The notes below the pieces were generated by a model, which was not told where the DNA came from, did not search any database, and saw only the letters and a list, made by a program, of their open reading frames with translations. Positions 1 through 4,928 of a stretch of 4,928 bases of DNA are shown piece by piece. The position numbers and the translations under genes were made by a program. Numbering within the stretch: position 1 is the stretch's first letter; the number at the start of each line of letters is the position of its first letter. This DNA is from a virus, in UHGV virus genome UHGV-2078699; one strand, 5' to 3'.

Positions 1-23
1 GGATTCGATTTTCGCAGCGGCCT

Positions 24-56
24 TTTCAACATAACGAGTCGTACATTATGCGCACC
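24..56 (-). other. dif-like XerC/XerD recombination site (putative prophage attachment junction), atypical spacing
   Basis: The minus strand reads GGTGCGCATAA-TGTACGACTCG-TTATGTTGAAA. The first 11 nt are identical to the XerC arm of E. coli dif (GGTGCGCATAATGTATATTATGTTAAAT, recalled from memory). The last 11 nt match the XerD arm TTATGTTAAAT at 9 of 11 positions. The two arms are separated by 11 nt rather than the canonical 6. Confidence 0.4.
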
Positions 57-94
57 AATGGTAAGGATGGCGGGAACTGGCGTTACCGGTGCCG

Positions 95-445: not shown

Positions 446-754
446 TCATATAAACCAATAGACCGTCCTTACGCCATTCTGGTTATCAATAACATAGCCG
501 CATTGTTTCCTTAAAAATTCTTCTGCTAAATCAATGGCTTTTACAGAAATCTCATAAGAAGGAAGTAAAGTGTATCCTTTCCCTTCACTGGCAGCTGCTT
601 TGATCGCATCCAGAGTATTATCAATCAGTAACAGAGCAAGTGATGCTTCATTTACCTGAGCCGAAGAACTTCTGGCTGCAAGTGTCATTGTTTTTGCTTC
701 TTCCGCTGTAATCGTTCGTTCTGCCAGAGCAGATAAAATCCCATAAGAATCCAT
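446..754 (-). CDS. hypothetical protein (102 aa), unknown function
   Basis: ORF with ATG at 754..752 and a GGGG-containing SD 7 nt upstream. The protein is Ala/Leu-rich and helical-looking at the N-terminus with a beta-like C-terminus, and has no recognisable signal peptide or TM segment. I recognise no family. Confidence 0.45.
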   Translation of the reverse strand: MDSYGILSALAERTITAEEAKTMTLAARSSSAQVNEASLALLLIDNTLDAIKAAASEGKGYTLLPSYEISVKAIDLAEEFLRKQCGYVIDNQNGVRTVYWFI

Positions 755-2096: not shown

Positions 2097-2471
2097 TTAC
2101 TCCTGACAGGTAACAGTCTGTAAATAACGGCCTTTTCTAATAACAACACGACAGGCATCTTTAATATCAACGGAATAACCATCTTTAATCAAATCAAAAT
2201 ACTGATATTTCATACCTTTTGCATCAACAAACGTAACGGAAACGTCAAAGCCAAGTTGTGAAAAAGAATTAATAGAAAGTCGGGGTAAGTCACTGGACGA
2301 ATCAGGCGTTACCGCCCTCGCCTGTTCAGCATAAGCAGATTTAATAGCTGAGATTTCATCAACATTCTTTCCAGACTGGAGCCAGAAACCAAACGCAAGC
2401 CCCAGCGCCAAAAAAGAAAGCATTAATATAAGACGGTTCGATTTGCGAAAATAAATTTTAGTGAGGCGCAT
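2097..2471 (-). CDS. gXI: putative gene XI protein (pXI / pI*), in-frame internal start within gene I
   Basis: An in-frame ATG at 2471..2469 is codon 241 of gene I, the same residue index as the pXI start in M13 as recalled (MKLTKIY there, MRLTKIYF here). It lies just N-terminal to the TM segment, with an AGAGGA SD-like element about 12 nt upstream. Confidence 0.5.
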   Translation of the reverse strand: MRLTKIYFRKSNRLILMLSFLALGLAFGFWLQSGKNVDEISAIKSAYAEQARAVTPDSSSDLPRLSINSFSQLGFDVSVTFVDAKGMKYQYFDLIKDGYSVDIKDACRVVIRKGRYLQTVTCQE

Positions 2472-3191
2472 ATAATAATTAAATCCTCTGTGAACAGAAA
2501 ATTGACCGTGCGTGATAAATGGTGGCAAAAGCGAAAATGCGCCATGAGGATAATTATCTGTGAACGCTTGTTTGGTATTGTAAGCAGAATAAAGAGATTT
2601 TCCTGTATATATCCATTTATCAACAGTGATTGAATTAACATTATCACCATATTTGACAATGCCAAAGTGTACCTTTGGTAAAGAAAATCTCGCTCCTGAA
2701 ACCAAATTCATAATGGAGCCAACAAAAGGAATGTTTAATTTATCTGAACGGCGACAATAAACAACATGCTCAGCAAGCGCCAGACGAGCTTGCTTATCCA
2801 TTATCGAAATATCCTGAATCAAAAATATAATATCCCAGCCTAATTTTCTGGCATGTAAAAACCAGTCAATAACAGGTTGTCTGTCTTTATCACCCCATGA
2901 GCGGGAATTAAACCAAGTACCACATTCATCAAGTACAAGGAGGCCATTACGGGATTCATCGTAAGATGTATTCCCAATACCAATAGCAAGTAAATCATTT
3001 AATGAAGGCTTGTCAGGAATGCGAATAACGCGCGTTTTTTTCGCATAACGCCCAACCATAGGCATATTATGCAATTTAAGATCAAGATTAGTGGCAACAG
3101 GACAACCCTTAGCAAGTCTTTCCTGTATTCTGGAAACACTAACAAGTGTCTTGCCTGAGCCTAATTTGCCTGTTACTACATAAACCGCCAT
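2097..3191 (-). CDS. gI: filamentous-phage gene I protein (pI assembly ATPase, Zot-like)
   Basis: N-terminus MAVYVVTGKLGSGKTLVSV with Walker A GKLGSGKT and Walker B-like LLVLDECGTWF. Roughly 70% identity by eye to M13 pI as recalled (IDWFLHARKLGWDIIFL, ALAEHVVYCRR). A single TM segment LILMLSFLALGLAFGFWL lies near residue 255. The ATG at 3191..3189 directly follows the gene VI stop (TAAATG), with SD AGGGTGA. Confidence 0.95.
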   Translation of the reverse strand: MAVYVVTGKLGSGKTLVSVSRIQERLAKGCPVATNLDLKLHNMPMVGRYAKKTRVIRIPDKPSLNDLLAIGIGNTSYDESRNGLLVLDECGTWFNSRSWGDKDRQPVIDWFLHARKLGWDIIFLIQDISIMDKQARLALAEHVVYCRRSDKLNIPFVGSIMNLVSGARFSLPKVHFGIVKYGDNVNSITVDKWIYTGKSLYSAYNTKQAFTDNYPHGAFSLLPPFITHGQFSVHRGFNYYMRLTKIYFRKSNRLILMLSFLALGLAFGFWLQSGKNVDEISAIKSAYAEQARAVTPDSSSDLPRLSINSFSQLGFDVSVTFVDAKGMKYQYFDLIKDGYSVDIKDACRVVIRKGRYLQTVTCQE

Positions 3192-3533
3192 TTAAATCAC
3201 CCTGTTTGCATAATCAAGAAATTTTTGTTTTAAATCGAAAACAAAAACACTGATACGAGTAACCATAATAACGTTAACACACGCCTGAAAATGGTCAGGC
3301 AGTACAGACGCCATTAAATGGGAGAAATCAGCAGGTAAACCGTTGTACATGACCTCAGCAAGGTACTGCATTAAAAGCGTAACAGTTGTTGTAATTAATG
3401 CGACCAATGCAAAGGCGATTAATCCTGTTCTGGTAGCAAGTCGAGCTAAAAAACTCGCCACATAGCCAATAAACAAAGGAACAAGACCAATAAGAAAACG
3501 CAACAATGCAGGAATACCTAATAATAAAGGCAT
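3192..3533 (-). CDS. gVI: filamentous-phage gene VI protein (pVI minor coat protein)
   Basis: 113-aa hydrophobic protein MPLLLGIPALLRFL...FVFDLKQK, matching M13 pVI (MPVLLGIPLLLRFL...IFIFDVKQK, recalled). The ATG at 3533..3531 shares one nucleotide with the gene III stop (TGATG). The ORF track starts one codon earlier at a GTG, which I do not favour. Confidence 0.88.
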   Translation of the reverse strand: MPLLLGIPALLRFLIGLVPLFIGYVASFLARLATRTGLIAFALVALITTTVTLLMQYLAEVMYNGLPADFSHLMASVLPDHFQACVNVIMVTRISVFVFDLKQKFLDYANRVI

Positions 3534-4067
3534 CACTCACCCCCTTTGCGAAGCAATGAAGTTAAAGAAGTAAAGACATACCAGAACGTAAGGCAATAAA
3601 AAACCCATGAAAGAACATCTTTAATAGTCAGTAATTTATCGCAACCAATATCAATCTGATAAACCTCTCCGGGAAAAATAATAAAATCAGAGCAGCCGTT
3701 ACCATTGGGTAAATTAGGCAGCATAGCACCTTTATTTAAAAATGCTTCCCATAAAGCACCGTGAGAATCCTTTTCAATTCCCAATTCAGAATCAGCTAAA
3801 GTAGAAGCGCCATCTAATTCAGAGTCGCCCTTTCCATAACGAGAATCACCACCTGAAGGGTCAGCAAAACGGCCAGCCCCCCGCGTAAGATTGTTAATGG
3901 AATCGTCAAGACGATTTATATTATTCCTGGTTTGTTCATCGGCATTTTTTTTATCATCTGATGAAGTGTCTTTCTCCGTTAATTTATCATGAATATCGCT
4001 GGCTATTTTGGGTGAAGCACCTTCGATCGCAGACTGAATATCACCTTTAGAAAGACTGGAACCACTA
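3533..4067 (-). pseudogene. gIII: gene III (pIII) C-terminal fragment, interrupted by IS630 insertion
   Basis: The C-terminal roughly 175 codons resemble the pIII linker and C-terminal domain (NGNG, IDIGCDK vs M13 SIDCDK, hydrophobic anchor YVFTSL, terminal LLRKGGE vs ILRNKES). Upstream of about 4068 the frame continues into antisense IS630 sequence and the N1/N2 receptor-binding domains are absent. The 5' boundary is approximate, about 5 nt either way. Confidence 0.8.
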
Positions 4068-4928
4068 AATAGCTGCGCGGAATAGTAGATCACTGAAAGG
4101 GAACTCAGCCCGGATTGTGCGATCTGATCAATCGCCAAACCAACCAAAATCACCAACCGGACTGAGCGATGCCGATCATAGTACCAATACCCCGTGGCGA
4201 ACGACGCCTGATGCAGAAAGCTATTCATAAAACGCGTGATAAAAATCATGCCCGCAGACTCACGGCCATGCTGATGCTTCATCGGGGTGAACGGGTCAGC
4301 GATGTTGCCAGAACTCTCTGTTGTGCCCGTTCATCCGTTGGTCGCTGGATTAACTGGTTTACGCACTCAGGTATTGAAGGCCTGAAATCCTTACCCGCAG
4401 GGCGCTCCCGACGCTGGCCTTTTGAACATATCTGCACCCTGTTACGTGAGCTGATAAAGCATTCTCCCGGCGATTTTGGTTATCAACGTTCACGCTGGAG
4501 CACCGAATTACTGGCAATAAAAATCAATGAGATAACCGGTTGCCAGTTACATGCAGGAACCGTTCGCCGCTGGTTGCCATCTGCGGGGCTTGTATGGCGC
4601 AGGGCCGCGCCAACTCTGCGTATCCGTGACCCACATAAAGATGAAAAGATGGCGGTAATCCACAAAGCGCTGGATGAATGCAGCGCAGAGCATCCGGTAT
4701 TTTATGAAGATGAAGTGGATATCCACCTTAATCCTAAAATCGGTGCGGACTGGCAGTTGCGCGGACAGCAGAAACGGGTAGTGACGCCGGGGCAGAACGA
4801 AAAATACTATCTGGCCGGCGCACTGCACAGTGGCACGGGTAAAGTCAGCTACGTGGGCGGCAACAGCAAAAGTTCAGCGCTGTTTATCGCTCTGCTGAAG
4901 CACCTGAAAGCCACTTACCGGCGGGCGA
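4068..4928 (+). mobile_element. IS630-family insertion sequence, left end and most of transposase (partial; continues beyond window)
   Basis: The sequence encodes a transposase matching IS630 as I recall it. GC content rises sharply relative to the AT-rich phage genes (sampled 60-nt lines are about 33% GC in gene IV and about 70% in the transposase). The left boundary is placed after a CTA at 4065..4067, consistent with IS630 inserting at CTAG with TA duplication. The exact inverted-repeat end is not verified. Confidence 0.8.
4169..4928 (+). CDS. IS630-family transposase (Tc1/mariner-like DDE), 3' truncated by the window edge
   Basis: Plus-strand frame open from the ATG at 4169 to the end of the window (253 codons): MPIIVPIPRGERRLMQKAIHKTRDKNHARRLTAMLMLHRGERVSDVARTLCCARSSVGRWINWF (N-terminal HTH) ... 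DPHKDEKMAVIHKALDECSAEHPVFYEDEVDIHLNPKIGADWQLRGQQKRVVTPGQNEKYYLAGALHSGTGKVSYVGG. It is missing from the supplied ORF track, presumably because no stop codon falls inside the window. Confidence 0.9.
   Translation, partial: MPIIVPIPRGERRLMQKAIHKTRDKNHARRLTAMLMLHRGERVSDVARTLCCARSSVGRWINWFTHSGIEGLKSLPAGRSRRWPFEHICTLLRELIKHSPGDFGYQRSRWSTELLAIKINEITGCQLHAGTVRRWLPSAGLVWRRAAPTLRIRDPHKDEKMAVIHKALDECSAEHPVFYEDEVDIHLNPKIGADWQLRGQQKRVVTPGQNEKYYLAGALHSGTGKVSYVGGNSKSSALFIALLKHLKATYRRA

Follow-up and report, generated by a model that had tools for sequence, protein, structure and literature searches.

A probable CTXphi-type attP1 site in a UPphi-type filamentous prophage interrupted by ISEc33

Filamentous phages that integrate at dif

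The attP1 and attP2 sites of CTXphi reportedly form a forked hairpin, a structure said to go back to the work of Val and colleagues in 2005 and of Das and colleagues in 2010. In this phage, the central region of attP1 comprises 12 bp and that of the inverted attP2 5–7 bp, and neither site works as double-stranded DNA; it is the folded (+) single strand that serves as the substrate of XerCD, with XerC catalyzing the sole strand exchange and replication completing the integration (PMC4246890). Integration of CTXphi is irreversible, and phage production therefore requires tandem copies (PMC4246890). The two sites of the El Tor phage read AGTGCGTATTA TGTGGCGCGGCA TTATGTTGAGG and AATGCGTATTA TACGCCA TTATGTTACGG (PMC3089051). 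In VGJ-type elements, the integrating form is double-stranded DNA, and a single attP is used (PMC4246890).

UPphi, CUS-1phi, and Ypfphi are published inoviruses that integrate at dif, and their attP biology is already known, which leaves little that is new in the site described here. CUS-1phi and Ypfphi have been classed as CTX-type, with attP features for the direct integration of single-stranded DNA (PMC4246890, PMC3089051). The scheme for Ypfphi, labeled "proposed" by Derbise and Carniel, comprises pairs of inverted XerC/XerD sites, a dif regenerated at the 3' end, and an "imperfect dif" between copies (PMC4266046). The genes II and V of UPphi are about 85% or more identical to those of Ypfphi, and the same split among the genes as in the prophage analyzed here has been described (PMC7307601). 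The match between the UPphi repeats and dif is confined to the first 15 bases of the latter; the main text of the respective paper uses neither "attP" nor "hairpin" and refers to the site as a phage copy of dif (PMC7307601).

A UPphi-type prophage and its dif-like site

The window, that is, the whole stretch of 4,928 nucleotides from the virus genome UHGV-2078699, represents on its minus strand the distal half of an inovirus genome, as indicated by its open reading frames and the annotation of identical DNA in Escherichia coli 1368KP (locus L001). All phage genes lie on the minus strand. The 3' part of gene III, which encodes the attachment protein (3533–4067; intact in L001 at 15533–16750), is followed by a gene VI-like gene (DUF5455; 3192–3533) and by gene I for the Zot-family assembly ATPase (2097–3191), both identified from the reading frame and the annotation of L001, and by gene IV for the secretin (824–2089; annotated in L001 at 12824–14089), which shares about 80% nucleotide identity with gene IV of IKe over 190 nt. 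Two small accessory genes come next: an open reading frame of 102 amino acids (446–754) and a hypothetical UPphi accessory gene of 77 amino acids (95–328), which is annotated as WP_001159442.1 in 1368KP and in uropathogenic E. coli (UPEC) F11 (locus L002) and is the last phage gene before attP. The former contains, at window 708–727, an exact match to primer IntCheck_RV of UPphi901 (PMC7307601).

Gene III is interrupted by a partial copy of the IS630-like element ISEc33 (4068–4928, plus strand), which was recognized by its transposase frame and its identity of 99.8–100% to annotated ISEc33 copies and continues past the end of the window. The left end of the element is located at about 4062–4069, and matches to intact prophages end at window 4067–4069. 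Because the element resides inside gene III, this copy of the prophage is unable to make intact g3p. The insertion at about 4067 is absent from 5,426 complete E. coli genomes; window 1–4067 matches 47 complete E. coli genomes with 83% coverage and an identity of up to 100%. A whole-window search of a phage collection that apparently lacks UPphi, CUS-1, and Ypfphi yielded weak matches to gene IV of IKe/PEar and matches to the insertion sequence.

By its sequence, the phage is assigned to the UPphi-type inoviruses (the Lineavirus-like group of Shapiro and Putonti 2020): it has the marker sequence, IKe-like morphogenesis genes including gene IV, two novel open reading frames after gene IV, and Ypfphi-like genes II and V. 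It also resembles the UPphi viruses in the reverse-oriented accessory genes beside dif and in the formation of tandem arrays at dif, but differs from them in the ISEc33 copy in gene III. The reverse-oriented accessory module, which adjoins attP2 outside the window (L001 10885–11956), varies among copies and strains; it encodes a protein with a PD-(D/E)XK nuclease domain and a DUF6953 protein in 1368KP and other hypothetical proteins in F11. Next to attP, this module thus forms a slot for variable cargo, in the place where CTXphi carries rstR.

The kinship with Ypfphi is restricted to part of the genome. In the Y. pestis locus, which represents Ypfphi, the proteins encoded by genes II and V are 87% and 93% identical to those of the window-type phage. 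By contrast, the morphogenesis genes are unrelated; pIV is only 27% identical, and a comparison of g3p, g8p, pVI, pI, and the two small open reading frames with the Y. pestis locus yielded no match. The entire attP module, however, is 100% identical at the tandem junction of Ypfphi in Y. pestis NCTC5923 (L006 9735–9828), and in the CUS-1-like copies of UPEC F11 it is identical except for one base in the loop, which bears out the resemblance to inovirus attachment sites from which an earlier note on this DNA had argued. These identities place the phage in the UPphi (IKe-like) group, with only the replication and attP module in common with Ypfphi and CUS-1phi.

The dif-like site is located at window 24–56. 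Its minus strand, read from 56 to 24, consists of an XerC-binding arm, a spacer, and an XerD-binding arm (GGTGCGCATAA-TGTACGACTCG-TTATGTTGAAA). In comparison with E. coli dif (GGTGCGCATAA TGTATA TTATGTTAAAT), the XerC arm (46–56) matches at 11 of 11 positions and the XerD arm (24–34) at 9 of 11. The reverse complement thus reproduces the arms and the 11-nt spacer that had been reported. The central region (35–45) begins with TGTA, which adjoins the XerC arm also in the central region of dif (TGTATA), so that the identity with dif spans the first 15 nt of the site (GGTGCGCATAATGTA). With its 11-nt spacer, the site resembles neither a chromosomal dif (a 28-bp site with a 6-bp central region) nor the single double-stranded attP of the VGJ type, whose arms are about 6–8 bp apart. 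Other XerD arms were sought at spacers of 4–10 nt; the best one matches at 5 of 11 positions, and there is none at the canonical spacing of 6–8 nt. The same 33-nt site is present at every phage-unit boundary in related genomes. Window 24–56 very probably represents the attP1 of a two-part site of the CTXphi type in a UPphi-type filamentous prophage and marks the boundary of a phage unit, either as the junction of a tandem array at dif or, less likely, in the circular replicative form. The alternative wording of the earlier note, a non-canonical att, was therefore apt.

The inverted partner and the forked hairpin

In every related copy, a second site (attP2) is found 34 nt past attP1. It is inverted, has a spacer of 5 nt, and reads GGTTCGCACAA-TGACG-TTATGCTAAAG. 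Because window 1–94 is 100% identical to the relatives, the genome represented by the window should also possess attP2. The window contains the start of the 34-nt segment between the two sites (1–23, minus strand; identical to L001 12001–12023, with the continuation taken from relatives). This segment holds a GC-rich hairpin with a stem of 10 bp; according to the predicted fold, position 23 is a linker base, 22–13 form the 5' arm of this apical stem, and 12–1 its loop of 12 nt. The window stops short of the 3' stem arm and of attP2, whose position past its left edge is known from relatives.

In the folded (+) strand, the XerC arm of attP1 pairs with TTGTGCGAACC of attP2, and the XerD arm pairs with TTTAGCATAA, including two G·T wobbles. 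The ATT at window 57–59 (minus strand), located in the conserved flanks, adds another 3 bp to the XerC-arm stem by pairing with the AAT just after attP2. As single-stranded DNA, the entire 121-nt region is predicted to form one long hairpin, in which an XerC duplex, an asymmetric bubble of 11/5 nt, an XerD duplex, and a GC cap follow each other. The fold of the (+) strand has a free energy of –31.2 kcal/mol (z = –7.8), and none of 200 shuffled sequences was as stable. Since the fold of the complementary strand has almost the same stability (–29.1 kcal/mol; z = –6.1), the choice of strand rests on the biology of packaging rather than on energy. Where loci are set with gene II on the plus strand, attP1 is always on the plus strand and attP2 always on the minus strand; the strand on which attP1 runs from the XerC to the XerD arm is the one that codes for genes II–IV. 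Among Inoviridae, the coding strand is the packaged (+) strand.

The geometry of the two sites is conserved also in more distant relatives. In Brenneria alni (locus L005), attP1 reads GGTTCGCATAA TGTGCCACACG TTATGTAGAAA and attP2 reads GGTTCGCATAA TAACG TTATGCAAAAG. The spacers comprise 11 and 6 nt in locus L008, where the sites are 49 nt apart, and 11 and 5 nt in locus L042; locus L017 has a spacer of 10 nt. Across the relatives, the spacer of attP1 ranges from 10 to 11 nt and that of attP2 from 5 to 6 nt, and the TGT directly after the XerC arm is invariant among all variants. Spacer length is maintained despite changes in sequence in Brenneria and in loci L008, L017, and L034. The preservation of a 10–11-nt spacer in divergent relatives is explained by the pairing of attP1 with the inverted partner site, and the 11-nt spacer, as judged from these comparisons, would be a conserved functional feature of the attP1/attP2 pairing and not a sign of degeneration.

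The predicted fold is supported also by covariation. In an alignment of 12 sequences, which are mostly close relatives and include the one from which the tested structure was derived, 94% of the cells are paired, compared with 28–49% when the partners are slid against each other. Eight pairs have changed on both sides, as opposed to 2.1 in shuffled alignments, and none of 500 shuffles reached eight. Given the small size and close relatedness of the alignment, these changes are supporting evidence for the fold rather than proof.

The site shares many properties with that of CTXphi. The two dif-like sites are inverted, close to each other, and located between accessory genes and a reverse-oriented regulatory module; the spacer of attP1 is over-long (12 bp in CTXphi, 11 nt here) and that of attP2 is short (5–7 bp in CTXphi, 5 nt here); the XerC arm is followed by TGT in both phages and by TGTA in the window; and the (+) strand is foldable in silico. 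The junctions are likewise of the CTX type, and there are tandem arrays, a regenerated dif, and no annotated integrase. The differences concern the distance between the sites (about 90 bp in CTXphi, 34 nt here), the target (dif1/dif2 of V. cholerae as opposed to the dif of Enterobacterales), and the absence of homology to CTXphi outside the Xer arms; moreover, for the window phage the mechanism is predicted from sequence.

A further detail shared by both phages is the G at position 8 of the XerD arm of attP1 (TTATGTTGA..), which occurs in TTATGTTGAAA (window 27, minus strand) and in TTATGTTGAGG of CTXphi. Since attP2 has an A at this position in both the window-type phage and CTXphi, the folded site contains a G·T wobble. 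The common G may reflect a constraint or a coincidence.

Alternatively, the double-stranded replicative form might recombine with dif through a single site, as in VGJphi, whereas the inverted partner would be irrelevant to integration, for example as part of a terminator. VGJphi is likewise a filamentous phage with an XerC-side exchange at dif that regenerates dif at one end, and such an exchange leaves identical junctions with single- and double-stranded substrates. The GC-rich apical hairpin is located between convergent transcription units and could terminate transcription, but a simple scan for terminators and promoters around it found nothing, as the loop comprises 12 nt and the T-tract is short. 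The attP central region of VGJ-type phages has the normal length, whereas the window phage has an 11-nt spacer and an inverted partner; an arm spacing of 11 bp is outside the 6–8 bp of Xer sites, and the absence of an XerD arm at 4–10 nt speaks against a hidden site of canonical spacing. Moreover, attP1 and attP2 co-vary in their arms, and the attP1 of CTXphi, with its 12-bp central region, is unsuitable as double-stranded DNA (PMC4246890). Integration of the VGJ type is therefore an unlikely explanation.

Parts of the attP region occur also outside of prophages. A search with a 110-nt attP region found matches at 475 places on E. coli plasmids; among the plasmid matches listed, most span only positions 32–103 of the query, that is, the tail of the XerD arm of attP1, the GC hairpin, and attP2. 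At one such locus (L049 4005–4071; NZ_CP062870.1 15648–15714), the remnant adjoins a truncated IS200C and a reverse-oriented gene of the STM4504/CBY_0614 family. It resembles a relic of the left end of such a phage that was picked up by large plasmids.

Junctions in dif arrays and the proposed route of integration

In related E. coli genomes, the prophage forms a tandem array between hipA and a perfect dif. In E. coli 1368KP, two tandem units of 8,670 bp adjoin hipA; a 33-nt site identical to that in the window is present at the host junction on the hipA side (20694–20726; host flank ttggtttatatt) and between the copies (12024–12056), and a perfect 28-bp dif ends the array at the far side (3359–3386). 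In E. coli K-12, 76 nt separate hipA from the native dif, whose XerC arm faces hipA; this indicates that the array splits dif at the boundary of its XerC arm and central region. By this sequence comparison, the crossover maps to the shared GGTGCGCATAATGTA. The annotation of the 8,670-bp unit includes no integrase, and the integrase/tRNA attachment site that would have spoken against integration at dif did not materialize; the view of the earlier note that a filamentous prophage here makes use of dif and XerCD is upheld by these arrays, and the partner site it expected at the other end is the perfect dif at their distal end. Ypfphi of Y. pestis and CUS-1phi of E. coli O18:K1:H7 resemble the window phage in their integration at dif, the formation of arrays, the imperfect dif between copies, and the dif at the 3' end (PMC4266046).

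The same polarity is found in other loci. In four prophages from IMG/VR (L012, L019, L029, and L047), which contain a single site of either type and are apparently present as one copy, the upstream site is of the attP1 type and the downstream site is a canonical dif. Junctions as expected from an XerC-side exchange, with dif at one end and an attP1-type hybrid at the other, or arrays, are thus present in these four loci and in the arrays of 1368KP and F11. In loci L019 and L007, the XerC arm is AGTGCGCATAA in the upstream site and GGTGCGCATAA in the downstream dif, a difference that would fit a crossover at the boundary of the XerC arm and the central region if the arms of host and phage differ.

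The leftmost site of Y. pestis NCTC5923 (XerC arm GGTGCACATAA, L006 993) was dropped from crossover mapping in favor of loci L019 and L007 because its upstream flank resembles phage flank. The 22 nt on its 5' side together with the arm (agattccgcctatcgttacctt and GGTGCACATAA; L006 960–1003) resemble agattctgccatccttaccatt and GGTGCGCATAA at L006 9700–9745, which represent the phage's own flank 5' of attP1 in this strain; no convincing open reading frame was found upstream of position 993. Either a Yersinia-like dif flank was once captured by the phage or a diverged phage remnant lies upstream.

The earlier note had interpreted the site in the window as a prophage/host junction and its long spacer as possible degeneration. 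Identical 33-nt sequences do occur at the real host junctions on the hipA side of 1368KP and F11, which means that the sequence of the site does not separate a host junction from a junction between copies. The flanks do: at a genuine boundary with the host, the XerC arm would be flanked by ttggtttatatt, or the site would be a canonical dif with a 6-bp central region, but window 57–94 is the end of the phage and window 1–23 is the apical hairpin that starts the next unit, and both are identical to the repeated unit. The presence of phage DNA on both sides identifies the site as a copy-to-copy junction or the attP of a replicative-form circle. It corresponds to the "imperfect dif" between the copies of Ypfphi (PMC4266046) and agrees with the UPphi repeats, whose likeness to dif ends after 15 bases (PMC7307601). 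Degeneration after integration is contradicted by the spacer sequence, which is unchanged in at least nine independent loci, including that of Y. pestis, and by a spacer length that is kept in Brenneria and the other divergent loci while the sequence differs, which is the opposite of decay. A hybrid host junction with a decayed spacer is accordingly very improbable. That the likeness to dif is fortuitous and without function, as might be suggested by the mismatches in the XerD arm and by the unusual spacer, is hardly credible, because only 0.0018 exact XerC arms are expected in the window from its base composition and only about 4e-6 composite sites (an exact XerC arm, a spacer of 4–14 nt, and an XerD arm with at most two mismatches) per window, or 0.004 per 5-Mb genome, and because the site recurs at every unit boundary, where an array integrated at dif needs it; the concern that the match falls within background frequency is thus dispelled.

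Under the preferred reading of the site as attP1 of a two-part, CTXphi-type attachment site, integration would proceed as follows. The packaged (+) strand, which corresponds to the minus strand of the window, would carry attP1, the 34-nt hairpin segment, and the inverted attP2 (XerD arm, 5 nt, XerC arm). This single strand would fold into a forked hairpin, with the XerC half-sites as one duplex arm and the XerD half-sites as the other around the 11/5-nt bubble, and would thereby recreate a dif-like target that is provided by neither of the double-stranded sites alone. The XerC of the host would cleave both the phage strand and the top strand of dif after GGTGCGCATAA and would then exchange the strands; on the minus strand of the window (the phage + strand), this cleavage is predicted between positions 46 and 45. 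The TGTA beside the XerC arm would pair with the central region of dif, and the pseudo-Holliday junction would be resolved by replication. By analogy with CTXphi, the substrate would be single-stranded, XerC would be the only catalyst, and integration would be irreversible.

The product of this reaction would consist, in this order, of hipA, the XerC arm of the host, the central region and XerD arm of the phage, the phage genome, the XerC arm of the phage, the central region and XerD arm of dif, and the host chromosome, so that a functional dif would be regenerated at the distal end. Further integrations would give rise to tandem arrays, whose internal junctions would be exact copies of attP1, as in the window. 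To the left of the window, the minus strand would then read CGCAGCGGCCTCTTTAGCATAACGTCATT(G/A)TGCGAACCAAT, followed by the reverse-oriented accessory genes.

The dif array of UPEC F11 (L002 1–20400 and L050; NZ_CP076123.1, about 1646700–1678000) is mixed. It begins at hipA with two UPphi-type copies, followed by at least two CUS-1/Ypf-like copies whose morphogenesis genes are different, and the same 33-nt attP1 site is present at every junction. The only co-infection with Ypfphi mentioned in the UPphi paper is located away from dif (PMC7307601). Incoming Ypfphi prefers to integrate between resident copies, at the "imperfect dif", a behavior that classical models do not predict (Derbise and Carniel, PMC4266046). 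It is conceivable, though rather doubtful, that the double-stranded attP1 between copies, with its 11-bp spacer, serves as a secondary target for the single-stranded DNA of superinfecting phages. The mixed array of F11 is compatible with such targeting between copies, and no less so with homologous recombination or a series of integrations at the distal dif.

The reading of the site as a CTX-type attP1 offers an explanation for the 15-base partial dif repeat of UPphi, which would consist of the XerC arm and the TGTA of attP1. The IKe-like and the CUS-1/Ypf-like inoviruses, which are otherwise unrelated lineages, share a module for replication and attachment and can, as in F11, coexist in a single dif array. 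In the annotation of prophages, dif-like sites with spacers of 10–12 nt should be taken as a reason to look for an inverted partner instead of being dismissed as degenerate.
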